Positions 39,809-64,000 of a stretch of DNA of 64,000 nt are shown one piece after another. How positions within the stretch are numbered: the stretch's first letter is position 1; every line of letters begins with the position of its first letter. Source of the DNA: a virus. The notes beneath the pieces were generated by a model, which saw nothing but the letters and a program-made list of their open reading frames with translations, had not been told where the DNA came from and made no database searches. Both the position numbers and the translations under genes were made by a program. The stretch covers positions 1-64,000 of IMG/VR virus record IMGVR_UViG_3300018420_000012; one strand, given 5' to 3'.

Positions 39809-42800
39809 ATGTTAAACTTCTTCTTGGCAGATAGAGTAAAAGAAATATCTTATACTGTTGGTACTGGCCCGCTTCAGCTTGAAGGTGCGGCTGCTGGCTT
39901 CAGTGGATTTGATGATATTTTTGCGTCTGGCGATTTAGTATTCTACGCTGTTACTGATAATGATAAGTATGAAATTGGCTCTGGTATTTATGAAAAAAGC
40001 GGCTCGTCAAGAGTTCTTACTCGAAATGTTATTAGAAGTTCTAATTTAAATATTGGTCCATACTATGTGGACGGTACAAGTAATCGCGGCCCTACTGATG
40101 GTCAGAATGGATATTTTCATCCGTTATGGCTGTCGAGGTCCGCAGCGGTCAGCGGTGTTGGCCTTACTGATGGGCCATTTAGTGATGTCAGCGGAATCTC
40201 GTTCGATGAATTTCCGGGGCAAACTTTTTATTATGTTCCTGAGTATTTCGGTGCTGCCGAACCTTCTCACTCTGGATTAAGCGGTGTTGATTTTAATGCG
40301 TCTGGGAATCCAGTTAGCTTTGTCAACGATGGAGTAAAAGAGGTATTTGTAACATATCCGGGCAAGACGGCTGTATACAACGCTTACGGTATAGACCCAA
40401 GTGTTAAAGAACCACAGAGAAGTGGTATTGCGTTCTGGGAAAATGGACAAATTATTAATTATGCATCTGGCATGTCTTGGGACAATGTAGCAGATGCACT
40501 TGGCTTCCGCAAGCATAACCCTACTTATGCCATTGATGTTGGTGGGAATATCGACTACTCAGTAGTTAGAGCTTCCGGTTTTGTTGATGGTGGTTCAGGT
40601 ATTTTATTCTCTGGTGTTGCTGGTTCATTCTCTGGTGGTCGTCAGCTAGAGCCATTTCTTAGAAATGTATTAAATAATGAGACTGGTACGGACGCTGTGT
40701 TTGAACTGAGCGGCGTGGTAGACCAAGGGATCATGTTCCAAAAGCAGCTTCCTAGAACTTTCTTTATTGGTCCATCTGGCGAGTGTGGATGCGTTGATGA
40801 CTACCCCGTGTTCAGAGAATTGGTAGCAAGTGACTTAGACCCTATCGTTGCTGATTTACCATTTGTTTCTCAGAACAATGTCGGTATTGGTTCAAATTCA
40901 GAATATCCTTTTGTTGTTGGTCAGATCGCAGTATATAGAGCTAGTGGCGAAATAACTTATGATAGTGGTCTATATTATGACGCTAATAATAATCGTCTCG
41001 GTATTAATGGCGTGACCGATGGATATTTGGTTCCAGAGTATGTACTGCACGTTAGCGGTGATATGGCTGCACAGTCTGGATATTTTGACCAAGTATTATT
41101 TACTGACGACATTATCAGAATTGGCGAAAATGCCGGTACTTATCTTGATAATCTATTCGTTGTAAATATTGGCTATAATGCCGGTGCTAATGCTAGTGGC
41201 GTAGAAGATGGTGTTATTGTCGGTAGTGGTGCCGGTAACAACCTAAAAGATTCTGACAAAGTTATTGTAATTGGTAGAAACGCTGGTCAACTCACTAGAT
41301 ATACAGATTCCATCATTGGAATTGGCTCTCAATCCGCTGAAAGTGCTAGTGGATTATACAATATTACGGCTATTGGCTCTGGTGCTGCTTGGGGAGCTTC
41401 TCAGGTAGATCAGAGCTTTATCGCTGGTCCTTTCGCTGGTAGTGGATTAGAAGAAGCTGAATCCGTTGTGGCTATGGGCTGGAATGTATTAGCGAACGCT
41501 TCCGGTGTCACAGATGTTGTAGCTGCTGGTAAAAATGCTCTCAGGGGTTCACAAACCGTATCAAACGCCCAAGTTGTTGGTGAGTCAGCTGCGAGCGGCT
41601 CCTTCAATCTTTCGCAAGTTTCTGCTGTTGGCAATCTTGCGGCAAACGAAGCGTCTGGCTTGACAAATGTTGTAGCTGTAGGTCAACATTCTGCTAGATA
41701 CGCTGAGACACTAGACGATGTTGTTGCTATCGGTCGTGCGGCTGCCCAGTCTGGACTAGAGCTTGGTGACACTGTTGCGGTTGGAACATCTGCTGGATCA
41801 CAAGCTAGTGGCAATTTCAATATTTACTTTGGTGCTAATGCCGGTGCTTCACTATCTGGTAATGAGAACATTGAGATTATCGCTTCTGGTTCATCTCTCA
41901 GTTTCTTAACAAATGAAGCTAGTGGCAAACTTAATATCGGCAATACCATTGTTGGTGATATTTATCAGGGTAGAGTAAAGGTTGGTGCTCCAACTGACGC
42001 TTCTCCAGATGCAACCCTTGAGGTTCGCCCAGATAACGCAGAAGAAATCGGACTACTTGTTCGTCATGTTGGCTCTGGTGGGTCGGAACCTTACTTCGCC
42101 CTACAATCCGGTGATGCTACTACATTCTTCCATATTAACAATAGTGGCGATGTCATCACTAGTGGCTGTGTAAATCCTAGTGGCGGTGTTTTGTTTAACG
42201 ATATCGTCCCTCAAGACATTACTAATAAACTTTATAATGACGGCGGTACATTATTCTGGAATGGATCACAGGTAGACACTGCTGGCGGAACCAGTTGGTA
42301 TCTTAGCAACGACCAGCTAGGTGCGTCTGTTGGGCAAAATATTACCACAGATCAAACTGTTACAATTAGTGGTGTTAGTGGTGTTACGATAGACCAGATT
42401 GGTAGATATTTGCAAATCTCAGCCGGTGAATTGTCCGGTGTTCTTCAGCCACAGATAACCAATTCTCTTTATACATTTGATGTTGGTGCTAGTGGTTACG
42501 ACGCAAACAATAATGACCCCGCAACGATCAATCAGGGTGACATAGTTTTACTTTCTGGCGTTAGCGGTGTTCACGTTGATTTTGAAACTAGATACGCTGG
42601 TGGTCAACGGTCTGGTATTTTTGTTATTGGTTATGACCCAACCATTACCTACGCATTTAATGCTGTAGCTAGTGGAAATGGTGGACAAAACAATACGCCA
42701 AAATCAATGGTTAATGATTCCGTTCTTGCTATCTCCGGTGTTAGCGGTATTAATATTGACTTTGAGAACCGCTCAGATGGAACAAATGAGAGCGGCGTTT

Positions 42801-44320
42801 TTGTTCTAGGATTTACCGAAGAATACTGGAGCAAAGCGTCTGGCGAAGGGAACTACAGCCAGATTTTAGAAAATACAGCCAGTGGACTTGCTATTAGCGG
42901 TATCTCTGAGTGGGCATCTGGTGAGTTTGGAAGACTTGGACTTGGTGGCGGCACCAAGGGTACAAGTGGTATTATCTTCCAAGACGACCATTTGATTCTT
43001 GACCCACAAGGTTCTGGTTCACTCGCTAGATTGAATCTTAACGACAATAATAGCGTTATTATTCAAACAGAAGATGGTTATGAATTCTTTGGTGGTAATA
43101 GTAATTCGGTAATTGTTGGAGAGTCGGCGGGTAGTGGCTCTGTTGACTTAGACGGTAGCGTTGTGATCGGGAGTGGTGCTGGTCAAAACTCGTACTGTGG
43201 CCCGGATGTTTACAGTGGGCCGTGGGCGGGTTCTAATAATGTTCTTATAGGTAGTAGAGCTGGAGCTTTTAGCAGCGGTGATGCTGCCAACTACGGAAAC
43301 GTGGTAGCCGTGGGAAATGCGGCTGGTTCTGGCGGTTGGAACGCAACGGACGGCGTGTTTGTTGGAGGACGTGCGGGCAGCAATATCGAATCATCCACCC
43401 AAGCCGTGTGTATTGGTTCGCGAGCTGGTGAAACTTTAATTGAAAGTCCACGCTCAATATCAATTGGTTGGTATGCCGGAAGAAATGCTTCTGGCATTAA
43501 CGACTCTGTTAATATTGGATGGAGAGCCGGAAGCTTTTCAGACAACTGTACGAACGCAATAAATATCGGCGGCTATGCAGGCTATACCGCTGAAAATAAT
43601 TCCCAATCTGTAATCTTAGGCGACGAAGCGGGAAGTTATTCAAACAATAATTACCGATGTGTTATGGTTGGTTGGGATGCTGGTAGAGAGTCTGCTTCTG
43701 GTCAAAACGAAATTTATATAGGTGCAAACGCAGGGTTAAACGCTTCCGGCGACTCGGCTTATAATATTTACATAGGTCAAGACGCTGGACGAGGAAGAGT
43801 CGGCTCAAATTCTATTATGATTCATAAGGGAAATGTTGCAACAGATAATCTCAAGGCCGACCACGATAGAGATGATTTGCTTGTGATTGGAGACAACATT
43901 CTCGGCATCGAAGATTCCTATCTTCATATCGGTTATAGTCTGGTTAATGATAAGGATCAGTCTTTATTTGGAACTTTAAATACTGCCGCACTCAATCTAA
44001 CACCTCACAGCACTACAAAATCCGCACTTTACCTAAGACCACTAAGTAGTCAATCTTCATCATTGATGAAAACAAAAAGCCTGTACGGTGCGACCTACTT
44101 TGATACAAATATTATTAATAAAAATGGACAGCTACTTGTTCAAGTGGCTAATAGCAAATCTGGTAACGAGATTCTTACCACTGGTGGAAGTGTAATACCA
44201 AGAGCTACGGCTGGACAGATAGCACTTTATGAGACAGTTTCAAATACTGGAATTGCAATTCTTGTTCAGGATGGCGGTGCTTTAACTTGGAGATACCTAG
44301 AACTTGGCTTCCTTCCTTAA
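39809..44320 (+). CDS. Very long fibre protein (1503 aa) with DRVxE anchor and two YadA-like beta-roll blocks
   Basis: ADRVKEIS.TVGTG N-terminus; about 14-aa V.IGxxAG..ASG repeats. Confidence 0.78.
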   Translation: MLNFFLADRVKEISYTVGTGPLQLEGAAAGFSGFDDIFASGDLVFYAVTDNDKYEIGSGIYEKSGSSRVLTRNVIRSSNLNIGPYYVDGTSNRGPTDGQNGYFHPLWLSRSAAVSGVGLTDGPFSDVSGISFDEFPGQTFYYVPEYFGAAEPSHSGLSGVDFNASGNPVSFVNDGVKEVFVTYPGKTAVYNAYGIDPSVKEPQRSGIAFWENGQIINYASGMSWDNVADALGFRKHNPTYAIDVGGNIDYSVVRASGFVDGGSGILFSGVAGSFSGGRQLEPFLRNVLNNETGTDAVFELSGVVDQGIMFQKQLPRTFFIGPSGECGCVDDYPVFRELVASDLDPIVADLPFVSQNNVGIGSNSEYPFVVGQIAVYRASGEITYDSGLYYDANNNRLGINGVTDGYLVPEYVLHVSGDMAAQSGYFDQVLFTDDIIRIGENAGTYLDNLFVVNIGYNAGANASGVEDGVIVGSGAGNNLKDSDKVIVIGRNAGQLTRYTDSIIGIGSQSAESASGLYNITAIGSGAAWGASQVDQSFIAGPFAGSGLEEAESVVAMGWNVLANASGVTDVVAAGKNALRGSQTVSNAQVVGESAASGSFNLSQVSAVGNLAANEASGLTNVVAVGQHSARYAETLDDVVAIGRAAAQSGLELGDTVAVGTSAGSQASGNFNIYFGANAGASLSGNENIEIIASGSSLSFLTNEASGKLNIGNTIVGDIYQGRVKVGAPTDASPDATLEVRPDNAEEIGLLVRHVGSGGSEPYFALQSGDATTFFHINNSGDVITSGCVNPSGGVLFNDIVPQDITNKLYNDGGTLFWNGSQVDTAGGTSWYLSNDQLGASVGQNITTDQTVTISGVSGVTIDQIGRYLQISAGELSGVLQPQITNSLYTFDVGASGYDANNNDPATINQGDIVLLSGVSGVHVDFETRYAGGQRSGIFVIGYDPTITYAFNAVASGNGGQNNTPKSMVNDSVLAISGVSGINIDFENRSDGTNESGVFVLGFTEEYWSKASGEGNYSQILENTASGLAISGISEWASGEFGRLGLGGGTKGTSGIIFQDDHLILDPQGSGSLARLNLNDNNSVIIQTEDGYEFFGGNSNSVIVGESAGSGSVDLDGSVVIGSGAGQNSYCGPDVYSGPWAGSNNVLIGSRAGAFSSGDAANYGNVVAVGNAAGSGGWNATDGVFVGGRAGSNIESSTQAVCIGSRAGETLIESPRSISIGWYAGRNASGINDSVNIGWRAGSFSDNCTNAINIGGYAGYTAENNSQSVILGDEAGSYSNNNYRCVMVGWDAGRESASGQNEIYIGANAGLNASGDSAYNIYIGQDAGRGRVGSNSIMIHKGNVATDNLKADHDRDDLLVIGDNILGIEDSYLHIGYSLVNDKDQSLFGTLNTAALNLTPHSTTKSALYLRPLSSQSSSLMKTKSLYGATYFDTNIINKNGQLLVQVANSKSGNEILTTGGSVIPRATAGQIALYETVSNTGIAILVQDGGALTWRYLELGFLP

Positions 44321-49068: not shown

Positions 49069-49431
49069 ATGAACGACGGTTTTGATAAACTGATTCGCAA
49101 GCAATCAGAATACAAGTCTGTAAGGGAGGATAAGTACAAAACTGACTCTCGCTCTAGACTTTCTAAGATATTAAAAAAGAAAGTTGAAACCACCATGATA
49201 GGTGCATTATCTTCAATAGAAGAGCATTTTTCATTCTTGTGGGCTTCTGACGCTGAAGGGCTTACGCCAGAGCAAAAGTTGATGTATGATTTGTTTCAAA
49301 AAGTTAGATCAGAGATTTTGGATAAAGGAAATTCTCAGTCTAGAAATATAGATGCTGAATTATCTCAGTATGAAGTAAAATGGCTAAGATATTCTGTGGA
49401 AATTCCAGTTAAGAAAACGGAGGAGAAATAA
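49069..49431 (+). CDS. Hypothetical protein (tail region)
   Basis: GGAGG RBS, in operon. Confidence 0.65.
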   Translation: MNDGFDKLIRKQSEYKSVREDKYKTDSRSRLSKILKKKVETTMIGALSSIEEHFSFLWASDAEGLTPEQKLMYDLFQKVRSEILDKGNSQSRNIDAELSQYEVKWLRYSVEIPVKKTEEK

Positions 49432-49432
49432 G

Positions 49433-50284
49433 ATGAGTAATAGGGTAGATAGGACGATTACTGTAAACGGGCAAGAAATCGAGTTTTATGTTGTTAGACC
49501 TTCAAACGAGACTGTCAGATTGGCAGATAGGTTCAGAACTAAAACATGGACTGACTGCTGTAACGATGGCATACCAACAAAAAAACAGCTCGTCAAAATG
49601 AACATGGAAAACGGCAGTTGGGCAAAAGAAAAGTCCGACGCTGAAATTTACATCACTAGAGAAATTGTTAGGCTAGAGAAAGAACTGTATAGCGGTGGCG
49701 ATAAAAAGAAAAAGCCTAAACTTTCTGACGGTAGAAATCTAGCTATTAAAATTAGACAATTAAGATTAGAACTTAGAGACTTAATCGCAGAGAGAATTTC
49801 ACTTGAAGAGAATTCTGCTGAAAACCTAGCAGATAATGCAAGATTTGACTTTCTTGTTGCTCATTCTACATTCTATAAAGACGGTAGAAGGATTTATAAA
49901 GACTTTAAAGATTATAATAGTAAAAGTGCGGATGAAGTCGCATTTGCTGCGGCACAAATTTTGGCCGAGATGGTGTATAATATAGATGTGAGCTTTGAAG
50001 AAAATCTTCCTGAAAATCTTTTCCTTAAAAAGTACGGACTGGTTGATGATAAGCTCAGTTTGATTGATCCAAATACAGGTCACTTGATTGACATTAATGG
50101 TCATAGAATTGACGAGCAGGGCTATCTATTAGATGACGATGGCAAAAGGGTCGATAGAGATGGAAACAGAATTACTGAAGACGGTAACTATGAGTTAGTT
50201 GAGTATGAAAATGATCTCGTAATTAAAAAACCGGCCAGAAGAACCAGAAAAAAAGCAGAAGAACCACAAACAACGGAAAGCTAA
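49433..50284 (+). CDS. Tail assembly chaperone-like protein
   Basis: Directly upstream of TMP; similar layout to 48032 (RPS...W..E...I..L..EL...EN.A); short D..G.R.D repeats. Confidence 0.6.
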   Translation: MSNRVDRTITVNGQEIEFYVVRPSNETVRLADRFRTKTWTDCCNDGIPTKKQLVKMNMENGSWAKEKSDAEIYITREIVRLEKELYSGGDKKKKPKLSDGRNLAIKIRQLRLELRDLIAERISLEENSAENLADNARFDFLVAHSTFYKDGRRIYKDFKDYNSKSADEVAFAAAQILAEMVYNIDVSFEENLPENLFLKKYGLVDDKLSLIDPNTGHLIDINGHRIDEQGYLLDDDGKRVDRDGNRITEDGNYELVEYENDLVIKKPARRTRKKAEEPQTTES

Positions 50285-50323: not shown

Positions 50324-53300
50324 ATGTCTAGATTCGTATTGACTGCACAATTACAGCTTGCTGCACCAACAAACACAAGAAACGTAATAGATCAAATTCG
50401 TCGTGAGCTTAGAAGTTCGGGCGGGGTTGAGATTCCTGTCGAGGTTAGAGGTGCCCGCCAAGCAGAGCGAGCTGTTGAGAATGTAAGAAGAGAGACGGAG
50501 CGTGCGACCGGTGCGGCTGATGCACTTGGTCGTAGCTTTGGTCTTGCAACCAGAAGATTTGCTGCTTTTACAGTGGCAAGTAGGGCTGTAAGTCTGCTTA
50601 CAAATAATCTGTCTAAGGCTGTTGATGAAGCTATTGCATTTGAGCGAGAGCTAATCAAAATCTCTCAGGTTACTGGCAAGACGTTAAAAGACCTTCGGGG
50701 GCTCACTAGTACAATTACTGAGCTTTCTACCACCCTTGGCGTTGCAAGTTCTACACTCTTGGGCACAGCTAGAATTCTTTCTCAGGCTGGTTTTAAAGCT
50801 AATGATTTACAGGCCGCACTTACGGCTTTGGCGAAAACAGAGCTTGCTCCGACGTTTGATGATATCAACAAGACGGCAGAAGGTGCTATTGCTATTTTCT
50901 CGCAGTTTGGACAGGGTGCTTCCGCACTTGAGGCACAGCTTGGTTCTATCAATGCTGTTGCTGGTCAATTCGCTGTTGAATCTGGTGACTTGATTGACGC
51001 TATTCGTCGTACCGGTGGTGTGTTTAAATCTGCCGGTGGTACACTAGAAGAGTTCTTGGGGCTTTTCACTTCTATTCGTGCAACTACCCGTGAATCTGCC
51101 GAGTCGATTGCTACTGGTCTTAGAACCATCTTGACAAGAATTCAGCGTCCTTCTACAATTGCATACCTTGAAGAGCTTGGTGTTAATCTTACTGACCTAA
51201 ACGGTAAGTTTGTTGGCCCATTTGAAGCGGCTAAAAGACTTGGTGAGGCTTTTGGTTCACTTGAGCAAGGTGATTTAAAGTTTATTCAAATTGCTGAAGA
51301 GCTTGGTGGATTCCGTCAGATTGGTAAGGTTATCCCTCTTTTACAGCAAAGTGCATTAGCACAAGACGCTTATCAGGCAGCATTAAAGGGTACCAACTCT
51401 TTAAGTAAAGATGCCGAAACTGCACAGCAAAGTCTTTCGGTCCAAATAGCAAAAGTTAGAGAAGAATTCTTAGCTTTGATTCGTGGCATTACGGACACCG
51501 GCTCTTTTAGAACATTTACCTCTATAGCTTTAGGGCTGGCTAGTGCGTTTATCAAGGTGGCCGATGCTATCAAGCCACTACTCCCACTTATAACTGCTTT
51601 TGCTGCCGTTAGGTTTACGGCTGGGATTTCTCGTTTTATTGGCGGTGCTGGTGCTGCCCTGCGTGGTGCTGGACCTCAAGCCAGAAATGCCGGTGGTGAA
51701 ATTCTTGGGTTTGCTAGAGGTGGTTTTGTTCCCGGCTCTGGCAATAGAGACACTGTTCCAGCAATGCTTACTCCGGGCGAATTTGTAATAAAGAAAAGCA
51801 GTGCCGCGAAGATGGGTGCTGGCACGCTACAGGCAATGAATGAGAATAGATTTGCCGGTGGTGGTAGAATACCTCTTTCTGATGTCCTTGGGGAAAACAA
51901 GAGTCCTGCAATTGGATTTGCAATTCTCGAAACGGATAAGGCATCTGTGGCATCTTCGACTTATGATGTTAATTCATCTGTGTTGCAGGATAAACTGGCG
52001 AAGGCTGGTTATACAGTCGATGGAAATAGGAAAGAGGCTTTTAAAAGATTAATTACCCCTAAAGCTAGGACTGGAGCAAGACAGGGCGTTAGTGAAGAAA
52101 ATAGCAAACAATTACAAGCTGCTATAGATACAGGACTAATTGCTGGAACCAATGTCGCAGCACAAAATGCCGCATCAGTTTTTGGTGTGCAAGGCATAAC
52201 GGGTGTATCCGAAGAGGCTTCAGCAGAATTTATTTCTAGTATAAATTCCGCTTCGAGGGGGAATCTTTTTGAAAATATAATCTCTGTTTTTCAAAATAAC
52301 CTTCAAGGTACAGCTTTCAGTGATACCCCCGGTAAACCATTTGATTTTGAGGATGGTGTTGATGGTCTTTTTGGTAATACCTTTAATAGATTAAAGGGGC
52401 AGACTTATGTTGATGCTAAGGCTTCATACGACGTAGCTAGTCCAAGAAAAAACACCGGGAAAATAGCAAATCAGATTGCTGATGAACTTATTGCAGACGC
52501 AGTATTGCGAGAGAAGTATGGTATAACAACATTAGAACAAGCATCATTGTCTTCGGGCAAGGGTAAGCCACAGAAGAAAAACAAGGGCGGTGGAATTAGC
52601 GGTTCTAGCGATACCGTACCGGCCCTTCTGACTCCGGGCGAATTTGTTATCAATAAGAGTTCCGCCCAAAGTATTGGATATGGCAATCTCAATAGCATGA
52701 ATAAAACTGGCGTTGCTCGATTTGCTAAGGGTGGGCCAGTCGGCGTCCAAAGGTTTGCGTTAGGTGGGGGTGTTCAGGGTGCTGGCCTTGCTGCTGCCGG
52801 TGTTGGGTTTGCATTTCAGGCTATAGATAAATTTGCAGCCGTCACAGAAGATGCTTCAGAATCTACAGTAAAAACCAATCTTGCATTAAAGGGCCTTTTA
52901 AATTCGGTACTTGCAGTTGGCCTTATTTTTAAGGGCGTGGTTGGGTTGAGAGCTATTATAAACGATTGGGGAAATGGCGTCAAGAAAAGCACCGAGACTA
53001 CCAAGCAAGACACGCAAGCCACAAGAGAGGCTACTCAGGCTACTCGTGAAGAAGCACAAAATAATAGACAATCCACATCCGGCGGCGGCTCTGGCGGCTC
53101 TGACGACTCTGACGATGAGAATACGCAAAAATTATCTAAGGCCGAGCAGAATAGAATTGCTAACGCAAAGAAGATACTTGAGCTTGAGAAGAAAAGAGAT
53201 GTTAGTGCTCAACGCAGCATCAAGTCTGCTAATAAGGCGACAGCCGCTGATAGAAAACTTGCAGATACAAGTCAAAAACTAGCTTCGACTCGTCGAGATG

Positions 53301-56300
53301 AGGCAATTCAAACTAGCAAAATCGAAACCTTATCAAAAAAATCACGCGAGCTAAGAAGAGCTGGAGTAACAGCAGACAAAAATTCTCAGGATATTCAAAA
53401 AAGAGCACTTGCTACAATAGAGGCAAGAGCCAGAGCGTTAAAGAAGGAAAGAACAGAAACAAGAGCGAGCGTTACTACTCTGGTAACATCAGAGACTAGA
53501 CTAAAGAAAGCTAGAAGTGTATCTATTCTACAAACAAATAAGCAAGCAAAAGCTGCAAATGCTCTTAATGCTAGAATACAAAGAAAGACAAGAATTGAGC
53601 AAATTAATAATAACACGCTTTTAAAAACCGAAGTTACTCTCGCGAAAATGAGGAACGCATACATAAAAGAAAGGGACGCACGCCGATCAGCCCAACAGGG
53701 AATGACTAGATTCCGGCGGAACCTTGTTAGATTATTTAATCCTGTTGCGGCAGCTAGTTCTAGTGTTAAAGTGCTAACGAGAGAAATATCAAAATTGAAT
53801 CGTGAGGCTAAAAAGGGCAAGGGCTTTGGTCAGAGAGTTAGGGGTGGCATTGCCAAAGTTGGTGGTACACTCACTGCCGCTGGCGGTGGAGTTCTAGCTC
53901 TTGGTGCTATTGGAAGCCAAATTGCTTCGGGGTTCCAGCAGCTTGCCGACAGACAAAAGGATGTAGCGTTAAGACAGGGAAACACAGCTGGTGCTGTTAA
54001 GGCTGCTGGTGCATCTGCCCAAGCCGAGACGATTGGAGAATTATTTACTGCTGCTGGTTATATTGAGGCACTTACAGACCCAGAAGGCTTCGCAAACAGA
54101 AGATTCGAGAAAAAACAGAGAGCAGAGGCCGACGCTGCGGTTGAAAGTTCGCTTAAAATTTCACAAGCAAGTGTTAAATCCTTGGGTGAAGGCGGGTTTA
54201 ATAATCAAGATGGAACAATTGATTTTCAACGATCCGCCCAAGACAGTGCTAAGGCTTTTGCAATAGCCAGAAGAGAAATTAGTCAGCTTCCATATGCAGA
54301 ACGTGCGGCAGCGGAATCGAGGTTGTTAGATCAGCAAGTGGAACAAATTACGAGTTTAGCTAATGCTGGTGCAAGTCTAACAGAACTACAAACAATTGCC
54401 GATCAGTTTACTGGTGGTTTCGGTAAAGGTTCCGATAGATTAAATAAGCTAATAGACAGCCTTATCTTGGCTAGAGAAGTACAACAACAATTAAATAAAG
54501 CCAACATTGATAGTTTAAAAATTACTAGTGCATTTAACGCAGCTAATCTTGCCGTTCAAAACTTTACAAATCAAATCACTTCAGGTGCCGACCCTCTTCA
54601 GACATTCTTTAATACATTTGAGGCAAGCAAGCAAAATATTGGTATTGATGCTTCTGCTGCAATTACTGAGATTGAAAATGCATTAGTCGAATCTGCCACC
54701 GGTGCTGGTGCTAGAAGATTAGCATCATCTATTCAGGGGCAAGCTGCTACGGCTAGGGCTGTAAATGAATTTAACGCAACCGCTGGTGCTAGAATATCTA
54801 ATGTTAATTTACGAACAGGTGATGCTGGTAAAGAAGATTTAGAAAAGGCATTGCTAGAGGGCGTTGATGACCCTCAAATTAGAAAAGCTGTTAGAGCAAA
54901 AATCAATGCCCTAAATTCAGAAGAGATTGCCACAACCGATATCAGCAAGTTTGTTCAAGAAATTCAAGCTGAAGTTGGCGAACTAAGCAAGGGCTTCACT
55001 GGTGCTGCTCAGGCTTTACTTGCACATAATCAGCAAATGGCACAGCTTTATGCAAAAAGAGAGCAATTAGAACAGGCGGCGGCAGAAGCACAAGTTAAAG
55101 CAATCGACACGCAAATTGAAGCTGCGAAGATTGCAGAAGAGTTTGGTGGTCCAAAAGTTACATCTGGGGCAATTGAAGCAGCCAGAGTAGCACAGTTTAA
55201 TGCGATTGGTGGACTAGCTGGTGCTACACTTGGTAGCGGCTCCGCACAAGAAATAGGAAGAATCAGGCAGCAGTTGGCGGACCAGTTTGCTGCGGCAAAT
55301 GAGACAGCTTTCCAAAATATAGTTCTTTCTGGTGCTGGCCTAAATAATAGAGGTGCTTTTGCTGGACAGCAAGGAAATGTAGACGATGTAAGACCAGAAA
55401 CGGTCAGAGCACAAGAAGCCTTAAATACTATAATTAGACAACAAATTGAAGCCAAAAAAGAAGAACTTAAAATAATCAAGGAAAAGAACGCAGCTGAAAA
55501 ATCCGCTCTAGACAAATTAATAAGTGGCGATGTAGCAGGTTTTATCGCACAGCAAGAAGCTGCCGGTGCAGCCGCAGCTCTTGAGACTGGAGATAGAGGC
55601 TTGGCTGGCTTGTTTGACGCTTCTGCACTCGGTGCTGGATTCAAGGAGCTTGAAAAGCGTGGTGCCGCAACCTTCGAGGCCGCACAAGCTACCCTTTCCT
55701 CTTTTGGTATTGCTGACACTAGTAGTGCTAGGGTTCTCTCTGGCACGACAGCTCAAGAAGAGGCGGCTAAGTCACAGATCAGAGCACTAGCTGGTGAACT
55801 TGGTCAACTAGCTACAGATCAGGCGGTTATTGCACAGTCGAATATTTCGATTCAAGATGCAACAATTACTGCTGCACAGGTTAGCTTCGAGAGGGGATTA
55901 AGGACGACATCTGAAAATAATACTTCCGAAGTCAGCTCAGTGTCTCAATTCGCTAGAGGGGGAACCGTTTATGCGAACCGTGGAATGTTTGTTCCTCGTG
56001 GAACCGATACTGTTCCAGCTATGTTGACTCCGGGAGAGTTTGTGGTTAATCGTTCGGCAGTTCAGCGTGGTAACAATTTGCAAATTTTAAACGCCATGAA
56101 CTCTGGTGGCGGTGCTAGTTCGCCAACCGCAAAGAGTGGTGGCGGACCAGTTCAATATTATCGTTTTGGCGGCCTTGTGGACGCTATTAATTCAGCCTTC
56201 ACATCTGCTGGAAATGGACTACAGGGTATATTTAATCAATTCGCTAAGAGCGTTCAAACATTAAGTGACACCAAGTTTTCTATTAAATTAGACCCAGTTC

Positions 56301-56458
56301 AGATAAATATTAATGGTGGATCATTCCTTGGTCTGATGAAGCAAGAGATCAAGGATGAATTACTCAAAGAAGTCGGTAAAGAGCTGCAAAAGGGAGGATT
56401 CAATAACACTGGATCATTTACAACTAGTAACTCAGTTTTACAGAGGCCAGCTGGCTAA
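50324..56458 (+). CDS. Tail tape measure protein with embedded nuclease-like domain
   Basis: TP901-type TMP core (FERELIKISQVTG...INAVAGQFAVES.DL...), Ala-rich helices, hydrophobic segments, three DTVPAxLTPGEFV modules. Confidence 0.9.
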   Translation: MSRFVLTAQLQLAAPTNTRNVIDQIRRELRSSGGVEIPVEVRGARQAERAVENVRRETERATGAADALGRSFGLATRRFAAFTVASRAVSLLTNNLSKAVDEAIAFERELIKISQVTGKTLKDLRGLTSTITELSTTLGVASSTLLGTARILSQAGFKANDLQAALTALAKTELAPTFDDINKTAEGAIAIFSQFGQGASALEAQLGSINAVAGQFAVESGDLIDAIRRTGGVFKSAGGTLEEFLGLFTSIRATTRESAESIATGLRTILTRIQRPSTIAYLEELGVNLTDLNGKFVGPFEAAKRLGEAFGSLEQGDLKFIQIAEELGGFRQIGKVIPLLQQSALAQDAYQAALKGTNSLSKDAETAQQSLSVQIAKVREEFLALIRGITDTGSFRTFTSIALGLASAFIKVADAIKPLLPLITAFAAVRFTAGISRFIGGAGAALRGAGPQARNAGGEILGFARGGFVPGSGNRDTVPAMLTPGEFVIKKSSAAKMGAGTLQAMNENRFAGGGRIPLSDVLGENKSPAIGFAILETDKASVASSTYDVNSSVLQDKLAKAGYTVDGNRKEAFKRLITPKARTGARQGVSEENSKQLQAAIDTGLIAGTNVAAQNAASVFGVQGITGVSEEASAEFISSINSASRGNLFENIISVFQNNLQGTAFSDTPGKPFDFEDGVDGLFGNTFNRLKGQTYVDAKASYDVASPRKNTGKIANQIADELIADAVLREKYGITTLEQASLSSGKGKPQKKNKGGGISGSSDTVPALLTPGEFVINKSSAQSIGYGNLNSMNKTGVARFAKGGPVGVQRFALGGGVQGAGLAAAGVGFAFQAIDKFAAVTEDASESTVKTNLALKGLLNSVLAVGLIFKGVVGLRAIINDWGNGVKKSTETTKQDTQATREATQATREEAQNNRQSTSGGGSGGSDDSDDENTQKLSKAEQNRIANAKKILELEKKRDVSAQRSIKSANKATAADRKLADTSQKLASTRRDEAIQTSKIETLSKKSRELRRAGVTADKNSQDIQKRALATIEARARALKKERTETRASVTTLVTSETRLKKARSVSILQTNKQAKAANALNARIQRKTRIEQINNNTLLKTEVTLAKMRNAYIKERDARRSAQQGMTRFRRNLVRLFNPVAAASSSVKVLTREISKLNREAKKGKGFGQRVRGGIAKVGGTLTAAGGGVLALGAIGSQIASGFQQLADRQKDVALRQGNTAGAVKAAGASAQAETIGELFTAAGYIEALTDPEGFANRRFEKKQRAEADAAVESSLKISQASVKSLGEGGFNNQDGTIDFQRSAQDSAKAFAIARREISQLPYAERAAAESRLLDQQVEQITSLANAGASLTELQTIADQFTGGFGKGSDRLNKLIDSLILAREVQQQLNKANIDSLKITSAFNAANLAVQNFTNQITSGADPLQTFFNTFEASKQNIGIDASAAITEIENALVESATGAGARRLASSIQGQAATARAVNEFNATAGARISNVNLRTGDAGKEDLEKALLEGVDDPQIRKAVRAKINALNSEEIATTDISKFVQEIQAEVGELSKGFTGAAQALLAHNQQMAQLYAKREQLEQAAAEAQVKAIDTQIEAAKIAEEFGGPKVTSGAIEAARVAQFNAIGGLAGATLGSGSAQEIGRIRQQLADQFAAANETAFQNIVLSGAGLNNRGAFAGQQGNVDDVRPETVRAQEALNTIIRQQIEAKKEELKIIKEKNAAEKSALDKLISGDVAGFIAQQEAAGAAAALETGDRGLAGLFDASALGAGFKELEKRGAATFEAAQATLSSFGIADTSSARVLSGTTAQEEAAKSQIRALAGELGQLATDQAVIAQSNISIQDATITAAQVSFERGLRTTSENNTSEVSSVSQFARGGTVYANRGMFVPRGTDTVPAMLTPGEFVVNRSAVQRGNNLQILNAMNSGGGASSPTAKSGGGPVQYYRFGGLVDAINSAFTSAGNGLQGIFNQFAKSVQTLSDTKFSIKLDPVQININGGSFLGLMKQEIKDELLKEVGKELQKGGFNNTGSFTTSNSVLQRPAG

Positions 56459-56474
56459 CGGAGAAATATAGGGA

Positions 56475-59400
56475 ATGTCAGATTTATTTTTTAAAGCACT
56501 AGAATGTTCTTGTGTAAAAGGAACCGCAGTTACTTGTCCTGCTGGTGGCGAGATCGTTGCAACTATGTCTGCGACAGCTACAATATCTGCTTCCGTTGAA
56601 TCAGATTCAAAAATATTTTCACCACAACCCGCAGATATTTGCAATGATACAGTTCAAGCCATTTCCGGTAGTGGCCCACTTTACCTTGTTACTACAAATG
56701 GTTCGTGTGGTGATATCAACACGGATTCTCTAGCTCAAATTTCTATTGGTGAAGAAACTTATTATTACAACATTATAACTATTGATGGTAATTCAATAAC
56801 TTTAGAGTATGATAATAGTACAGACGATATTGATAGACAGATAGAGATTGGTGATAGTCTACAATTCACTACTTATCTTGACACTATTCCGGTAGCTATA
56901 TCAAGAACAAGGGGTTTGTCACAAGTTGTCGAGGCTGACTCCGAGGTTTCAGCAAAGGCTTCTGCTAGAATTCAATTTGATCTAGACGCTTTCTTAGCGG
57001 AGGGTGAAATTGTTGAAGATTTATCAGCCGATTATTCTGCCAGTGGATTATTCATATCCGATGGGGAGTTTATAAATACAAATACCGACAAGGTTAATGG
57101 TGAATTTAGTGATTTTTATTGTCAACAAATTCTTTATCCAAGTGGCGACTTAGCTATTGATGAAGGGTTTGGCTCCTTCATCGCCGTCTATAATCAGAGT
57201 GGCAATCTTTATTCGTACATTGATGAGGGTGTCTATCAGGGCTTATTGATGGACCGTGGAGATTCCGTTCTATTAACCGACGATATAAATTCATTTATTC
57301 ACCCAAATACAATTCACACAGAGGGCTTCTTTCAGTATAAATGCTCTCTTACAGAGCTATACGTTCGTCCAGACGATTCGTATTTAAGAATGAGGGTTTC
57401 TGCTCCACTCAGAAACTACGAATCTAGAATTGCCCCTCTCTATACCGTCTATAATATTAGGCTTAATGACCCATCTGGTAATCTTATTATTAAGTACAAA
57501 GATTTTACCGTAAGGGGAGACTCAGATCAAGAACATCCAAACTATACAACTTACTCCATATCCACAGAGCAGAATGTATTAGCCGAAAGCTATGACTGGG
57601 AGAGAACGACACAGCCACATATGCACGAGGTTAGTGGCTATTCGTTGTCATTTAATATTAGAGCTATAGCACTTGATGATGCATTTACAGAAGGTTTTGA
57701 CGAGGGCTTTGAAGAAAATTATATCATACCAGAAATATTTAATGTTAGCGGTAATAATTATTTAGCACTAGATGGTTCTCCAATTTCCACCCAAGAAGAA
57801 AGATTTATTAATCCTACGGATGGGTTTAGAATTTCTGCTCTAGAAATTTGTAATAGTGGCGGGATTGGGTTTGGTTATAGAATAGAAAACACTCTGTCAT
57901 TCTATACTGAAGTACCAGAAACCGGAAGAAGATTAGAGCGTCAAATTCTTCCTTCCTTTATGCCAGTGTCTACGTTTGATACATCAATCTGGCCTTCTGT
58001 TAGTAGTGTCTGGGAAAGCTCAAGAGACAACTCTGTTACCAATCTTGATAAGTGCGGTTCAGAAGAACTAATTAAAATTCTAACGGGTGGTGGCCCTGAT
58101 TATATTACCCTTAATGCTATGGGTGGCGATAATATTGCCGACTCTGGAAAACTCACCATTAAATTTTCTTATGGGCCTTCTCCTGTCAGCGAAGTGACAT
58201 TAGGTGCGTTCAATTCTGATTTTGACCAAAACACTGAATCTATTTGGTTTAGCCCAAGCGGTGCTTTTAATACAGAAAATACAACTACTGGAGATCGACT
58301 AAAGCAAGATTTGTCTTTTGTTGATATTGACACTCTCACACTCAAAGTTGTAGCCAAGAAAGAAATTGGTTCTAGAGATTACATCCTTGATGTTGTTGGA
58401 TACAGTGATGATAAACTTCTAAATATGACCCCTGCTTCCGGTGGATTTATTCAAGACCCATCTGGAGTTATTCTTAATGATCTATTTGTTCCGAATGTAG
58501 GTCAACATCCAGTTCTGTCTGGTTTTTATTCTAATGGCAACGACTTCGCACTTGGTGGCACCGCCATCTCCCAAAAAGAACAATACTATCAAGCCAGCGG
58601 AAACGATCACTATAAACTCGCTCAGTACCCAACTGTTACCGGTACAGAATTTGAGACTTATGAGATACCTTTAGTTATTATAGATGAATCAGTAATCCTT
58701 GGTAAAGGTAAAGATTACAGTCTTAGCTCATTATTTGAACACCTATATTTAGATATATTTCCACTCCCAAGTGGTGCTAGTATCCGAGATATTTCTTTAT
58801 GTGCTAGGTACAAACCACAAAACGCTTTGCAATTCTATACTGAAGGTGGAGAGGGCATAGGCAAGCCTCAAGATGGTAGGTCGGAAGCGGCATTATTCCC
58901 ATCCGGCAGACAAACTGGTGATAATATATTAAATGCTGGTTCTGGATACGGCCCAATTTCTACCATAGAAGGTCTGCCCCATGCGTTTAGTTCGCCTGAG
59001 ACAATCAAATCAAACTACTCAAGAAGGTGGCGTGGTCGTGAAGGCACAGTAAGAGGGCCATACGACATAGACCAGTTCTCGTTCTCTTTTGAGAATCCTC
59101 TATTAGATTATCCATTCTTGTCTGGTTACTTCAAGTTTGACGATATTGAAGATGGATATGTCAAATCTGCGATTCTTGGCGGTGACTATGGAACCGTTAG
59201 TGGTTTAATAGTTGGCGACTTTGAATCATATCAGAATGTTGGATGGAGACTAACAAGCGGAACCTTGTTCCAAGATGCTATGCCGGGATTCAGCGGGAAC
59301 TATACGACAACCGACTGGACTTCTTTATCCAACGGGTCAACGACGTTTGTTGGCAATCCAATGTACGGAAAAATTGCCGATGCTTTTGATAGAGTCGTAA

Positions 59401-62400
59401 GAATATCTGGCGAGTCACAGAATATTAACTTTGGAAATATTGATACTGCGAGTGGCTTCTCTGTCTTTGCTAGATTTACACCGGACGTAAATGTTTCTGG
59501 TGCTGATTACGATTTATTTGAAAGCGGAATTTTATTCGCTAAGTGGGACGCTGCTGGCGATTTAGATTTTGCCCTAGCCTATAGTGGCGGCTTCTTAGCT
59601 GGTTATGCACAAGACGACATTGGTAATATTATCAAGGTTATAGATACTGTACCTTATAGCGGATATCAATATCCATTAAATGTTATCTTAACTTATAACG
59701 ATCATCAACAAAGCGGTCTTAAACTTTATACTGATAATGAATTCTGGCAAGATGAGTTCCCAGTATTGAGAGCAAGTGGTGGTCCTTTCTACAAAAACAC
59801 AACTAACGCAGATTTAGTTCTTGGTTTTGGTGCTGGTTCTGGCGTTGGCATGAACATGCTCGTTAGTGAATTTGGTATTTCAACGTGGGCTTCTGGTGTC
59901 TATGGCTCTGGAACAAACATTGTAGAATCCAATGCCGATAGAACATACAGACAGGTAACAGCTGAAGATTTCTTAATCAATAGTAGAGTTAAATTCTTTG
60001 ACCCGGACGAGGTTGCTTCTAACGACTCCTACAAGTTGTGGGATAGAGTAAATGAAGATACTTACAACGATTGGGATATTGGTGCTTTCCAGAACTGCAT
60101 GTTCTCCTCTGCTTTTGATGAATTGCAGATCAGACCTAGCATGGAGCAGATTGTATTTGAGATCAAGCATCATGGTTCTGGTTATACTCAGTACGCAGAC
60201 CTTCCCTCTCCGTCATCTGTAAATAGTGGTGTGTCCTACCACACCCAGATTGAAAACGACTTCCTTCGTTTCCACCTGACAGATGTTCCAGATAATTTCT
60301 ACTCAGTAAATAGAAGAATCACCAAGACATTACCGATTGGGTACAAGTTCTCAGAGAAAGCACTTGTTGTAGAGAGCGTGATCGAACATCACTCTAGCGG
60401 AGATATTGTATGGCCTGAGTGTGATGGTCAAGAGGGTCCACGATTAATCATTAGTCTTTACACCAAAAACAAAGACCCATACTGGAATACTACTGAGCCT
60501 AACTGGGGATTGGTTAATAGAAAAATTCATTATGTGCCACCATCTGCTTGTATTTATAGATTTGATAGCACGTTTACCTATGATGATATTTGCGACACCT
60601 CAGAAGAGTGGGCTATTTTCCCACAAGAGCCAAGACAGAGAGAATTTAAAGAGTCTTATTTCTCTGATGATGTAAACGATATGTTCGTTCAGTACGACCT
60701 TGTTTACCCATCCGGCCCAGCTTTTGAGTCAAGGCTTGACCTCCATTCATCACACATCAGAATGTCAGAGGCCAATATCCTCAAATTAGATGATTCTGGC
60801 GTTATGAATCTTTACGCAAGTGGCGGATTCCCAGCTACAGAATTCATTAATTTGGTTTGTGGTGAAATTGCTGTGTCTGGCACAGATAGTTTGCCATTGT
60901 TGATTGGCACTCCATTGCCGCTTGATAACCTTGAAGATACATCTGGTTCTGGATTCTTCTTAACAATCAGTGGTGCAATTAGAGTAGCTGAAATTTTACC
61001 TCTCTTTACACCTCTACAGTCTGGTATTGAATATCTAGACCTATTCATTAGTGGTCAAGAGCCTAGCTCAACTTCTAGCAGTATGAACTTGGCTATGCCT
61101 TATACCATTGGCTTCTTTGATTCGTCGAGCGATGCAAACATTAGAACCACCAGTGGCGGTGGCGGCGGTGGAGGTGGCGGTGGTCAGTCTACGGGTGGCG
61201 ATCCCGGAGATGATGCTACAATCGGCGGTAAACCACCAGCTAGTATTACATCAAGTTTCTTTGGTATGCCAATGGTTCTACTTGGAGAATCTGGAGTATA
61301 TGCAAATAATGATATTCCGCTATATGTCTATGCGACAAATATCGGAACCTCTGGCAGTTCTACAAACATGCCAATGACCCTTTGGAATAATTTCAATAAT
61401 ACTACCGCAGCAAATAATTCTGGCGTTCTCAATCTAACAACTAGAGCTATAGGCAAAATAAGAAGTAGATTTAGAAGCGATTACATGCCGCTATTTATCT
61501 CTGCACCATTAACACCATCTGCTATACTTCCTTTATACGTTACTAACTTCAATATTCCTGTTCAGAATACTGGTAGTATGAACCTAATGACGGCTAATTA
61601 CTCGTCGGCTGGCGGTTCTGCTTATGGGTTGTGGGATAATATTAATTACGGAACTGGTATTGAGCTTGATGATAATGTCTACGCAACAGTTCCAGTAGAC
61701 AATGAAATAAGGGGCGTTGATCTGACGGCTTATGGCTCTTGTGATGGTGATAGTCCAAGTAAAGCTATTGATCGTGCCTTGGCTACCGACTGCGTAGCTT
61801 GGAGAGAAGAAACGTGTAATGACGGCGGTATATTTAGAGCCAAAGAAACTTACACAAACCCCGAAGCAACTGGGTTTGACGGGGTAACTCTTGGCTATAG
61901 CGGCAATTACTATGGTCTTAGAAAGTTTACCGATCTAGTTCCTTCGTATAATTATTACACAACTGTAACTATCAAGACCGGCTCTACTGACCCAATTCCT
62001 GTGCCAAGAACTTTTGAGGAATGGGAATATGGAATGTGCGGCCCCGCTTGGGACGCTGATGGTTGCTGCACAGAAGATTGCGATCAGAACCTCGTGTTCT
62101 CTGGTGTTAAGTTGATTGGTGACGATGCCTGTGGTGTTCCTCCATCCAGTAACCTGTGTGTAGACCCAGATTCTATCGTAGCCTCTGGCAGACATGAATT
62201 TGCTAAGTATGGCAAAGCTCTGGCCGTAAAGAATGATTTAATGGCTGTATCTGCTCCTAATCAAACTATTCCAGAGTACGATATTTATTCAGACCCACCG
62301 ACTATGGTAGATGTCAGCGGTGCTGGCTCTGTATTCCTTTATCGTAGAGGCGACGACGTTGCTGGCAAAAAGGCTTCTTGGGAACTCGCAACACAACTCA

Positions 62401-64000
62401 TGCTTCCTACTGGATACCGAAAAGACTACCCTCAAAGAACCATTGACAATCTTCTTAGGTTCGATAACTTTACAATCTCTGGCGTTAAGTGGCAGATTGG
62501 TCAAGAGGGTCGTCAATTTGGTGAGTCTGTAGACTTATGTTCTAGCGGCGATAGAGAAGTAGTTGTAGTTGGAGCACCTAGAGCAAAATGGAGTAGAAAC
62601 TTTGAAGATATTGTAACGTCTGGAATACCAACCGCTGCTATTATCTTTGCCGATAGGTTTGCATATAGTGAAGTCTCTCTAAATAGAATTGCTGCAACAG
62701 CTAAAAGATTTGACATCTTATGGAAGTATTTCTCGGCACCTTGGTATGCAGACTCAATTTATGGTGGAACCCCACCTGAGTTCCAACCTCAGATTGAAAC
62801 AAAGTTCTTGGTTATTCAATCTTCATTGTCTAGTAAAGATAATCCACTAGTTCCTTCTGACAATGATTGGTTTAAGCACATCTATATTCCAAGATTAGAT
62901 GATTATGATCTATTGGTAGAGACTGGCTCTGGCGTATTCAGCGATGCCGGTCAAACGGGGACCGTTCAGCAATACTTTAACTCTGGACTTCCAGTTGTAT
63001 TTGAACAAATCAATAGTGGTATTAAAGCAGCCTTCTTTGAATTGTTCCCAAGCGGAAGGTCAGATGTTCTCTATAGTGGTGTACCAGCTATTGTTGGAAT
63101 GTTCCAAGAGCAAAGCTCGTCTACGTTAGGTGCCTTATCATTTACTTCTGAGGGCGGAACTTTCAATTCTGTATACAAAGAGTTTGAAGATTTCTATAAC
63201 TCTTATTCCATTAGTGGTGTCTATAATCAGATTACTGGAAATCCTGAAAGTGGACACTTAAATATTGTTCAAGATAGGTCAGAAGATTGGGTTGAAACTA
63301 CTCAAGAATTGATCTATAACACATTTGACTCTGGAAGGCTTGCGTCGTCTTACACGAATACAACACTAAATCAATACTTCATCACTAGCGGTGTTGGTCA
63401 AGAGTTTGCACAAGAATTCAACATTAATGAATTCCAGATCGCTCCAGCTTCCGGTGGTCGTGTTTACATCTTTGAAAATGAGAGGGGTAACTTTAATTGT
63501 ATCCAGCAGATTATTTCTCCTAATGATACATCAGACTTCTTTAACGACGAGACAGATTGGTATCTCGGAAACTCTTATGGCAAAAACTACAATGATAGAT
63601 TTGGTCACTCTGTTTCTATTAGCCAAAACGGTGAAGTTATTTCTGTTGGCTCTCCATTCTTAGCTGGCTCTCCATGTAGAATCTATGAAAGATCAGAGTC
63701 AGCAAATGCATTATTCTATGATGCAGTAAGAAGTTTTGCGTCCTACATAGGAAACACGGACGCTGTAGATCATTATGACAATATCCTCGCGTTGTCTGGT
63801 GCTGCCGTTGCGAAAGAATCAGCCTATGACTATCTAAATGATTCAGAGAGATTTAGATTAAGAACTGATATAAACTTCTGGGACGGCGATCCACCTAGTG
63901 TTTATCAAATTAGCTTTAGCTATAGCTATGGCGATATCGAGTATCGGGGCACGAGAAAGTTCTTGCCAGATGAGTTCGCTGGCGGATCAAGGCTTGGTTG
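56475..64000 (+). CDS. Giant tail-tip/adhesin protein (>2500 aa, truncated by the window) with LamG-like domain and FG-GAP repeats
   Basis: ATG 56475; frame consistent at spot checks to the window end, and absent from the track, consistent with no stop; GFSVFARFTP (~59450); YGKALAV..DLMAVSAP..GAGSVFLY, FGESVD..VVVGAP, GRVYIF, FGHSVSIS.NGE.ISVGSP. Confidence 0.85.
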   Translation, partial: MSDLFFKALECSCVKGTAVTCPAGGEIVATMSATATISASVESDSKIFSPQPADICNDTVQAISGSGPLYLVTTNGSCGDINTDSLAQISIGEETYYYNIITIDGNSITLEYDNSTDDIDRQIEIGDSLQFTTYLDTIPVAISRTRGLSQVVEADSEVSAKASARIQFDLDAFLAEGEIVEDLSADYSASGLFISDGEFINTNTDKVNGEFSDFYCQQILYPSGDLAIDEGFGSFIAVYNQSGNLYSYIDEGVYQGLLMDRGDSVLLTDDINSFIHPNTIHTEGFFQYKCSLTELYVRPDDSYLRMRVSAPLRNYESRIAPLYTVYNIRLNDPSGNLIIKYKDFTVRGDSDQEHPNYTTYSISTEQNVLAESYDWERTTQPHMHEVSGYSLSFNIRAIALDDAFTEGFDEGFEENYIIPEIFNVSGNNYLALDGSPISTQEERFINPTDGFRISALEICNSGGIGFGYRIENTLSFYTEVPETGRRLERQILPSFMPVSTFDTSIWPSVSSVWESSRDNSVTNLDKCGSEELIKILTGGGPDYITLNAMGGDNIADSGKLTIKFSYGPSPVSEVTLGAFNSDFDQNTESIWFSPSGAFNTENTTTGDRLKQDLSFVDIDTLTLKVVAKKEIGSRDYILDVVGYSDDKLLNMTPASGGFIQDPSGVILNDLFVPNVGQHPVLSGFYSNGNDFALGGTAISQKEQYYQASGNDHYKLAQYPTVTGTEFETYEIPLVIIDESVILGKGKDYSLSSLFEHLYLDIFPLPSGASIRDISLCARYKPQNALQFYTEGGEGIGKPQDGRSEAALFPSGRQTGDNILNAGSGYGPISTIEGLPHAFSSPETIKSNYSRRWRGREGTVRGPYDIDQFSFSFENPLLDYPFLSGYFKFDDIEDGYVKSAILGGDYGTVSGLIVGDFESYQNVGWRLTSGTLFQDAMPGFSGNYTTTDWTSLSNGSTTFVGNPMYGKIADAFDRVVRISGESQNINFGNIDTASGFSVFARFTPDVNVSGADYDLFESGILFAKWDAAGDLDFALAYSGGFLAGYAQDDIGNIIKVIDTVPYSGYQYPLNVILTYNDHQQSGLKLYTDNEFWQDEFPVLRASGGPFYKNTTNADLVLGFGAGSGVGMNMLVSEFGISTWASGVYGSGTNIVESNADRTYRQVTAEDFLINSRVKFFDPDEVASNDSYKLWDRVNEDTYNDWDIGAFQNCMFSSAFDELQIRPSMEQIVFEIKHHGSGYTQYADLPSPSSVNSGVSYHTQIENDFLRFHLTDVPDNFYSVNRRITKTLPIGYKFSEKALVVESVIEHHSSGDIVWPECDGQEGPRLIISLYTKNKDPYWNTTEPNWGLVNRKIHYVPPSACIYRFDSTFTYDDICDTSEEWAIFPQEPRQREFKESYFSDDVNDMFVQYDLVYPSGPAFESRLDLHSSHIRMSEANILKLDDSGVMNLYASGGFPATEFINLVCGEIAVSGTDSLPLLIGTPLPLDNLEDTSGSGFFLTISGAIRVAEILPLFTPLQSGIEYLDLFISGQEPSSTSSSMNLAMPYTIGFFDSSSDANIRTTSGGGGGGGGGGQSTGGDPGDDATIGGKPPASITSSFFGMPMVLLGESGVYANNDIPLYVYATNIGTSGSSTNMPMTLWNNFNNTTAANNSGVLNLTTRAIGKIRSRFRSDYMPLFISAPLTPSAILPLYVTNFNIPVQNTGSMNLMTANYSSAGGSAYGLWDNINYGTGIELDDNVYATVPVDNEIRGVDLTAYGSCDGDSPSKAIDRALATDCVAWREETCNDGGIFRAKETYTNPEATGFDGVTLGYSGNYYGLRKFTDLVPSYNYYTTVTIKTGSTDPIPVPRTFEEWEYGMCGPAWDADGCCTEDCDQNLVFSGVKLIGDDACGVPPSSNLCVDPDSIVASGRHEFAKYGKALAVKNDLMAVSAPNQTIPEYDIYSDPPTMVDVSGAGSVFLYRRGDDVAGKKASWELATQLMLPTGYRKDYPQRTIDNLLRFDNFTISGVKWQIGQEGRQFGESVDLCSSGDREVVVVGAPRAKWSRNFEDIVTSGIPTAAIIFADRFAYSEVSLNRIAATAKRFDILWKYFSAPWYADSIYGGTPPEFQPQIETKFLVIQSSLSSKDNPLVPSDNDWFKHIYIPRLDDYDLLVETGSGVFSDAGQTGTVQQYFNSGLPVVFEQINSGIKAAFFELFPSGRSDVLYSGVPAIVGMFQEQSSSTLGALSFTSEGGTFNSVYKEFEDFYNSYSISGVYNQITGNPESGHLNIVQDRSEDWVETTQELIYNTFDSGRLASSYTNTTLNQYFITSGVGQEFAQEFNINEFQIAPASGGRVYIFENERGNFNCIQQIISPNDTSDFFNDETDWYLGNSYGKNYNDRFGHSVSISQNGEVISVGSPFLAGSPCRIYERSESANALFYDAVRSFASYIGNTDAVDHYDNILALSGAAVAKESAYDYLNDSERFRLRTDINFWDGDPPSVYQISFSYSYGDIEYRGTRKFLPDEFAGGSRLG

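Follow-up and report, generated by a model that had tools for sequence, protein, structure and literature searches.

What does a tape measure protein (TMP) carry between two copies of one and the same junction motif, and could that cargo be an enzyme taken into the host? The question is raised by P0001, a protein of 2044 amino acids (aa) encoded in the first 64 kb of one 91,943-bp virus contig (IMG/VR record IMGVR_UViG_3300018420_000012, positions 1 to 64,000, hereafter "the window"). TMPs measure the tail, form a DNA conduit and sometimes carry a cell-wall enzyme. Because P0001 matched Pfam PhageMin_Tail (PF10145; E 4.4e-23, 82.6 bits, cut-off 33.2) as well as PHROG tape-measure families, and because its open reading frame (ORF) is directly followed by another of more than 2508 aa, we identified it as the tail TMP of this virus; its PF10145 domain, great length and gene position are those of the TP901/PhageMin_Tail type. 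A sequence-only reading of the window had proposed that repeated modules in this TMP bracket an exchangeable slot, and that the slot holds a PD-(D/E)xK nuclease released at infection. We find that the segment between modules 1 and 2 (slot 1) is a real, conserved and undescribed domain family, that to judge from its active-site-like signature this domain is probably enzymatic, and that the modules are homologous to a C-terminal motif of lambda gpH.

A conserved domain between the first two modules

When the 238-aa insert by itself was the query, an exhaustive HMMER search returned 40 cluster representatives, almost all of them long TMPs, with the short matches being mostly fragments from short contigs or members of clusters that otherwise consist of long proteins. 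In the HMM alignment of 106 insert homologues, from which the conservation figures are taken, the most conserved columns were G646 (98%), F649, E650 (98%), P672, F673, D674 (100%) and F675, together with D697, A698, K699 (93%), S701 and K713 (90%). The motifs RGNLFE, KPFDF and YVDAK, which the sequence-only reading had picked out, lie exactly where it had placed them and supply top conserved positions of the insert. At position 697, 92% of the homologues have D and a further 7% have E, while K699 stays fixed, so that the pair shows the (D/E)xK habit. Wider MAFFT alignments, with a mean column identity of 8–13%, showed no change at G646, E650 or D674 and hardly any at K699, and even inserts too divergent for the HMM to reach kept FE ... 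FD(F/Y) ... DAK. Scored as a strict pattern (G-x-x-h-E ... h-D-h ... (D/E)-h-K), the signature was present in 146 of 182 slot-1 inserts of relatives (50/69 from IMG/VR loci and 96/113 from the protein set), compared with 2 of 100 inserts from other slots (0/21 and 2/79) and 1.55 of 182 shuffled slot-1 inserts used as a control.

Structurally, the AlphaFold model of the whole insert (pLDDT 85.7, pTM 0.81) is mixed alpha/beta and mostly helical, which overturns its earlier description as non-helical. E650 sits in helix 128–143, D674 at a short strand, Y-V-D-A-K in strand 181–185, and K713 in the next helix. Residues 530–590 form an accessory beta-beta-alpha-alpha-beta part, and since a natural minimal version of 157 aa (in L046) lacks this N-terminal part, we place the core at approximately aa 586–745. 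Longer slot-1 inserts in relatives are made of two to three tandem copies of an 80–110-aa unit, each with all of the conserved residues, and such tandem arrays within one slot hint at a pseudo-dimer or multimer. Units of this kind were seen at aa 979–1092, 1279–1360 and 1396–1580 of the relative P0024, and at aa 629–711 and 747–934 of P0015.

Is the domain a nuclease?

Our best single guess, held tentatively and with somewhat less than even confidence, is that the slot-1 domain is a PD-(D/E)xK-type metal-dependent nuclease. The argument comes from the motif: E650 and D674 are 24 residues apart, D674 and D/E697 are 23 apart, and these residues and K699 are 92–100% conserved, which corresponds to the E ... 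(P)D ... (D/E)xK arrangement with its conserved residues and spacings of 10–40 residues. The proposed likeness to restriction-endonuclease-fold nucleases is therefore borne out at the motif level, and the residues concerned are the invariant core of the domain family. The surrounding pattern also agrees in order and spacing, with a G at −4 before the helix E, followed by h-D-h and then by a strand h-h-(D/E)-h-K; the minimal PD-(D/E)xK members Hjc and YraN have a motif arrangement that probably resembles that of the slot-1 domain. Among structural alignments to the insert model, the longest were to Cfr10I, PspGI and BsoBI, though these are weak.

Several results count against this identification. 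Pfam gave no match for the insert, for the cassette, or for 44 homologues scanned singly; the insert had no PHROG-specific match; PDB sequence searches with the single sequence and with profiles yielded noise apart from the module of the Douge TMP; and the ESM Atlas offered no usable match for the insert. In the structural check suggested with the earlier reading, the model was confident, but Foldseek found nothing below E 0.1 in the PDB or BFVD. With neither a sequence-profile match nor a significant fold match, the slot-1 domain departs from PD-(D/E)xK nucleases; in the models its conserved core shows two short strands, where those enzymes have the four-stranded mixed sheet of the alpha-beta-beta-beta-alpha-beta core. 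Nor is the domain basic (pI 6.6 in P0001, family median 8.8), and it is embedded in a virion ruler protein, whereas PD-(D/E)xK nucleases such as Hjc, YraN and type II enzymes of the Cfr10I/NgoMIV kind are free-standing.

The same lack of a fold match, along with the largely helical model, would suit a domain with a structural or regulatory task in the TMP and no catalytic one, its conserved charged residues being the binding site for a metal, for the leading end of the DNA, for the wall of the tail tube or for the tail chaperones. The domain is confined to TMPs, with no free-standing protein among the insert matches, and in lambda and Douge the DNA comes into contact with the TMP within the tail or connector. 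However, invariant single acidic and basic residues in an alignment otherwise only 11–13% identical are typical of active sites, and every conserved residue is kept in the tandem copies, so that we regard this alternative as possible but on the unlikely side. An enzyme of another sort, a new envelope-acting one (muralytic or otherwise periplasmic) that would open the cell wall with E650/D674 as an acid/base pair, is less likely again. In its favor, the enzymes proven so far inside TMPs of cultured phages are all muralytic (T5 pb2C), which also speaks against a nuclease; the module flanks an Rpf-like transglycosylase and a glucosaminidase in the cultured phages StAugustine and S-SCSM1, respectively; and Pfam found no other lysin domain in P0001. 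Yet the insert matched no lysozyme, transglycosylase, amidase or peptidase family in Pfam and no such fold in Foldseek, and we know of no muralytic family with a near-invariant Lys two residues after an interchangeable D/E. That E, D and K form an isopeptide-type covalent crosslink locking TMP subunits is highly improbable: a conserved lysine, aspartate and would-be catalytic glutamate are of the right type, but known isopeptide domains are beta-sandwiches, the insert model is helical, and nothing else supports the idea. A chance resemblance in a fast-evolving linker is refuted by the conservation in the 106 homologues, the confident models and the shuffled control.

The junction modules are homologous to a lambda gpH motif

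P0001 contains three DTVPAxLTPGEFV modules, as the sequence-only reading had reported, and each of their motifs was recovered at the coordinates it gave. The DTVPAxLTPGEFV segments start at aa 476, 763 and 1895 (nt 51749, 52610 and 56006), and each module is flanked by Gly-Gly motifs of the type aromatic-A-x-G-G: FARGG at 51710–51724 and 55949–55963, RFAGGG at 51848–51865, NKGGG at 52580–52594, RFAKGG at 52718–52735, RFALGG at 52751–52768 and YRFGG at 56159–56173. All three copies follow the lambda gpH-type junction pattern (aromatic-A-x-G-G, G-E-F-V, a helix ending in (M/L)N, and aromatic-A-x-G-G). Because identity at third codon positions among them is only 32–36%, we consider the modules to be old duplicates kept by selection on the protein, and the same values rule out a recent duplication or gene conversion.

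Evolutionarily, the module is homologous to the C-terminal motif of lambda gpH. A module HMM built from 443 distinct copies matched gpH at aa 754–785 (21.9 bits), and the gpH skeleton FHFATGG ... GEFVFTKEATSRIGVGNLYRLM ... YATGG (aa 731–790) equates to FARGG ... GEFVIKKSSAAKMGAGTLQAMN ... RFAGGG of P0001. Over 467 copies, the module consensus has its GG flanks in 95–96%. Lambda gpH has one copy and no insert, in contrast to the three copies of P0001 and up to six in its relatives. Further matches to the HMM came from TMPs of Vibrio, Nodularia and Mycobacterium phages, and from virion proteins beside baseplate hub genes of T4-like cyanophages. Mycobacteriophage Douge gp16, a TMP, has two module copies, which are unresolved in its cryo-EM map, and prophage-type TMPs in Streptomyces, Rhodoferax and Lysobacterales genomes have one module each. 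The cyanophage proteins (S-SCSM1 gp159 and S-SM2 SSM2_012) are 766–950 aa long, and their genes lie between a hub assembly gene and the TMP gene.

A Pfam search of the modules found no model that covers the motif. Tape_meas_lam_C (PF09718) was rejected as its equivalent, being located at gpH 627–701, and a relation to S24/LexA-like self-cleaving elements was dropped, since the resemblance was visual only, off by one residue and without a conserved Ser-Lys pair. The "metallopeptidase motif" region of T5 was likewise considered as a divergent module, which the module HMM did not support despite a similar R-A-E-G-G flank.

Variable cargo sits in additional slots

In a word-indexed search with aa 455–830 of P0001, 8000 candidates were scored and at least 2810 protein clusters recovered as relatives. 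This family consists almost entirely of TMPs of 2000–3500 aa with PF10145, and its sources are largely marine and lake metagenomes. Between two and six modules occur per relative: with few exceptions the first lies near aa 470–485, the second follows 190–650 aa later, and after a stretch of 1000–1300 aa come one to three more near the C-terminus. Neither megablast with the gene nor tblastn with the insert found a match among 50,697 deposited phage records, and hence no cultured relative carries the domain.

This sample bears directly on the proposed exchangeable slot, of which one half stands. Slot 1 is not an exchange site: roughly 80–90% of relatives have the same E-D-(D/E)xK domain family there, and of 69 slot-1 inserts sampled by the module alone, 61 belong to it. 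Unrelated inserts, an ADP-ribosyltransferase among them, do occur, and this variable cargo sits in additional slots that P0001 lacks, its layout being the minimal one of three modules, which has no cargo slot at the C-terminus. Between the later modules, nearly every insert is an unrelated singleton and has no Pfam match. In P0011, an ADP-ribosyltransferase (PF03496, aa 923–1135, 39 bits, cut-off 23) occupies an extra slot, with modules at 826 and 1157 on either side, and in P0058 a domain of the same family (aa 886–1098, also above the Pfam cut-off) follows the E-D-K domain. In StAugustine (gene 31), modules at aa 985 and 1810 bracket an Rpf-like transglycosylase (aa 1179–1262), which is the classical mycobacteriophage TMP motif, and in cyanophage S-SCSM1 gp159 a glucosaminidase domain follows the module. 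From these three enzyme types at modules we conclude that module-bounded inserts tend to be enzymes. One IMG/VR relative (L010:10169–10732) has a slot-1 insert with HExxH in place of the E-D-K domain; its ATLF-type match was weak (E 0.0019) and below the cut-off.

The ADP-ribosyltransferase seen at the modules needs a cytoplasmic substrate. Our literature search found no description of such an enzyme inside a TMP, the nearest case being the fusions of MuF head proteins with VIP2. In Microbacterium phages, this MuF-VIP2 ADP-ribosyltransferase is a virion protein with a polymorphic-toxin fusion (PMC7302621). Both systems have a virion protein with an exchangeable enzyme or toxin, and P0011 and P0058 share the Pfam family PF03496 with it, but the MuF carrier is a head protein with a C-terminal toxin, whereas here a tail ruler is the carrier and its slots are internal, each enclosed by copies of a repeated motif. 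T5 pb2 and the mycobacteriophage TMPs are similar to P0001 in having an enzyme-like globular domain inside the TMP. Their domains belong to recognizable muralytic families and are at the C-terminus, while that of P0001, located in the N-terminal third, is unrecognized and bears a nuclease-type motif.

Proposed delivery and possible cleavage

For catalysis, substrate, delivery and cleavage, we infer the following course. The slot-1 domain is the resident of a fixed position in giant TMPs of uncultured, mostly aquatic phages, and would have a hydrolytic site made up of E650 on a helix (G-x-x-F-E), D674 at a strand start (P-F-D), (D/E)697-x-K699 on the next strand and K713 on the helix after it. 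Being part of the TMP, it would lie inside the tail lumen, just N-terminal to a hydrophobic segment. At infection it would exit together with the TMP, a little before the DNA does, and its target would be nucleic acid at the cell envelope or within it. The modules lie outside the enzyme: they are additional copies of a junction motif that ordinary TMPs such as lambda gpH have once, near the C-terminus, and in this family they show which places can accommodate globular inserts. The phage may in this way carry a ready-made enzyme into the host.

Cutting of a TMP at or near the module has precedents in T5 and lambda. While the T5 tail is being assembled, pb2 is cleaved between a hydrophobic stretch and the enzymatic C-terminal piece pb2C; this piece remains in the tail, and its release into the periplasm at infection has been proposed. 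The 92-residue length of pb2C puts the cut at approximately R1127/A1128, inside F-V-P-R-A-E-G-G, and the R-A-E-G-G at this inferred cut is an x-A-x-G-G site like the module flanks. Lambda gpH is matured to gpH* and gpHC by a cut in a glycine-rich region just upstream of the motif (PMC12617516), and the upstream flank of the lambda module falls in this region. A bolder extension of these analogies is that giant TMPs are effector-delivery polyproteins, in which the junction motifs would serve as aromatic-A-x-G-G cut sites that free enzymes in the tail lumen for injection before the DNA. These would include the slot-1 nuclease and, in other slots, ADP-ribosyltransferases, metalloprotease-like domains and many unknown ones, and, injected ahead of the DNA, they would disarm or take over the host. 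We consider this extension doubtful.

Gene organization and features of the tape measure protein

The large genes of the window are all on the + strand, and terminase, portal and many large virion proteins are among them. The features of the TMP are collected in Table 1. Its Gly/Ala-rich hydrophobic stretch, with a Kyte-Doolittle peak at aa 851–880, is likely a membrane-inserting segment; the long ruler body is presumed to be of helical character; and the conserved C-terminal tail presumably docks in the tail tip, by analogy with T5, lambda and Douge. The tail cluster of 136 members is a single-linkage cluster and takes in some inter-module inserts.

Table 1 Features of the tape measure protein P0001, with nucleotide positions in the window.
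Feature	Positions	Strand	Basis
TMP gene (P0001), 2044 aa	50324–56458	+	Single open frame; Pfam and PHROG matches
PhageMin_Tail (TP901-type TMP) domain, aa 130–316	50711–51271	+	Pfam match
Module 1, aa 463–514: FARGG, DTVPAMLTPGEFV, RFAGGG	51710–51865	+	Motif positions
Slot-1 insert, aa 515–752 (238 aa), E-D-(D/E)xK domain	51866–52579	+	Homologues; AlphaFold model
Motif I, R-G-N-L-F-E, in helix (G646 and E650 each 98% conserved)	52256–52273	+	Alignment; model
Motif II, K-P-F-D-F (D674 invariant)	52334–52348	+	Alignments
Motif III, Y-V-D-A-K, in strand	52406–52420	+	Alignment; model
K713, conserved lysine (90%), helix after motif III	52460–52462	+	Alignments
Module 2, aa 753–815: NKGGG, DTVPALLTPGEFV, RFAKGG and RFALGG	52580–52768	+	Motif positions
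Gly/Ala-rich hydrophobic stretch, aa 816–895	52769–53008	+	Kyte-Doolittle peak; weak Sdh_cyt transmembrane-family match
Long ruler body, ~aa 960–1870	53201–55933	+	Composition; ~1000–1300-aa inter-module spacing kept in relatives
Module 3, aa 1876–1950: FARGG, DTVPAMLTPGEFV, YRFGG	55949–56173	+	Lambda-gpH position near C-terminus
C-terminal tail, aa 1951–2044, conserved in relatives	56174–56455	+	Tail cluster, 136 members

Directly after the TMP gene, the ORF at 56475–63998 (>2508 aa) runs off the end of the window; its sole Pfam match is a weak FG-GAP repeat, and it probably encodes a tail-tip or host-recognition protein. Directly upstream, where tail assembly chaperones usually sit, are ORFs at 49069–49431 and 49433–50284 with no PHROG match. 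Elsewhere, a 1503-aa ORF in the structural region (39809–44320) had no Pfam match, and four ORFs of 750–900 aa (15356–18034, 18055–20298, 20289–22565 and 29181–31805) had no PHROG match.

Implications

If the nuclease assignment is true, proteins of the tail lumen would gain a new activity, with a nuclease-type site conserved at one fixed position across a family of at least 2810 protein clusters, and enzyme injection through a non-contractile tail would have a concrete, testable example. Where TMPs are cut, and what cuts them, are questions that a 2025 study on lambda describes as open (PMC12617516); the repeated lambda-type junction motif gives a way into both, and the module-bounded slots show where a TMP tolerates foreign domains. 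Were giant TMPs in fact effector-delivery polyproteins, they would be the siphovirus-tail counterpart of polymorphic toxin systems.

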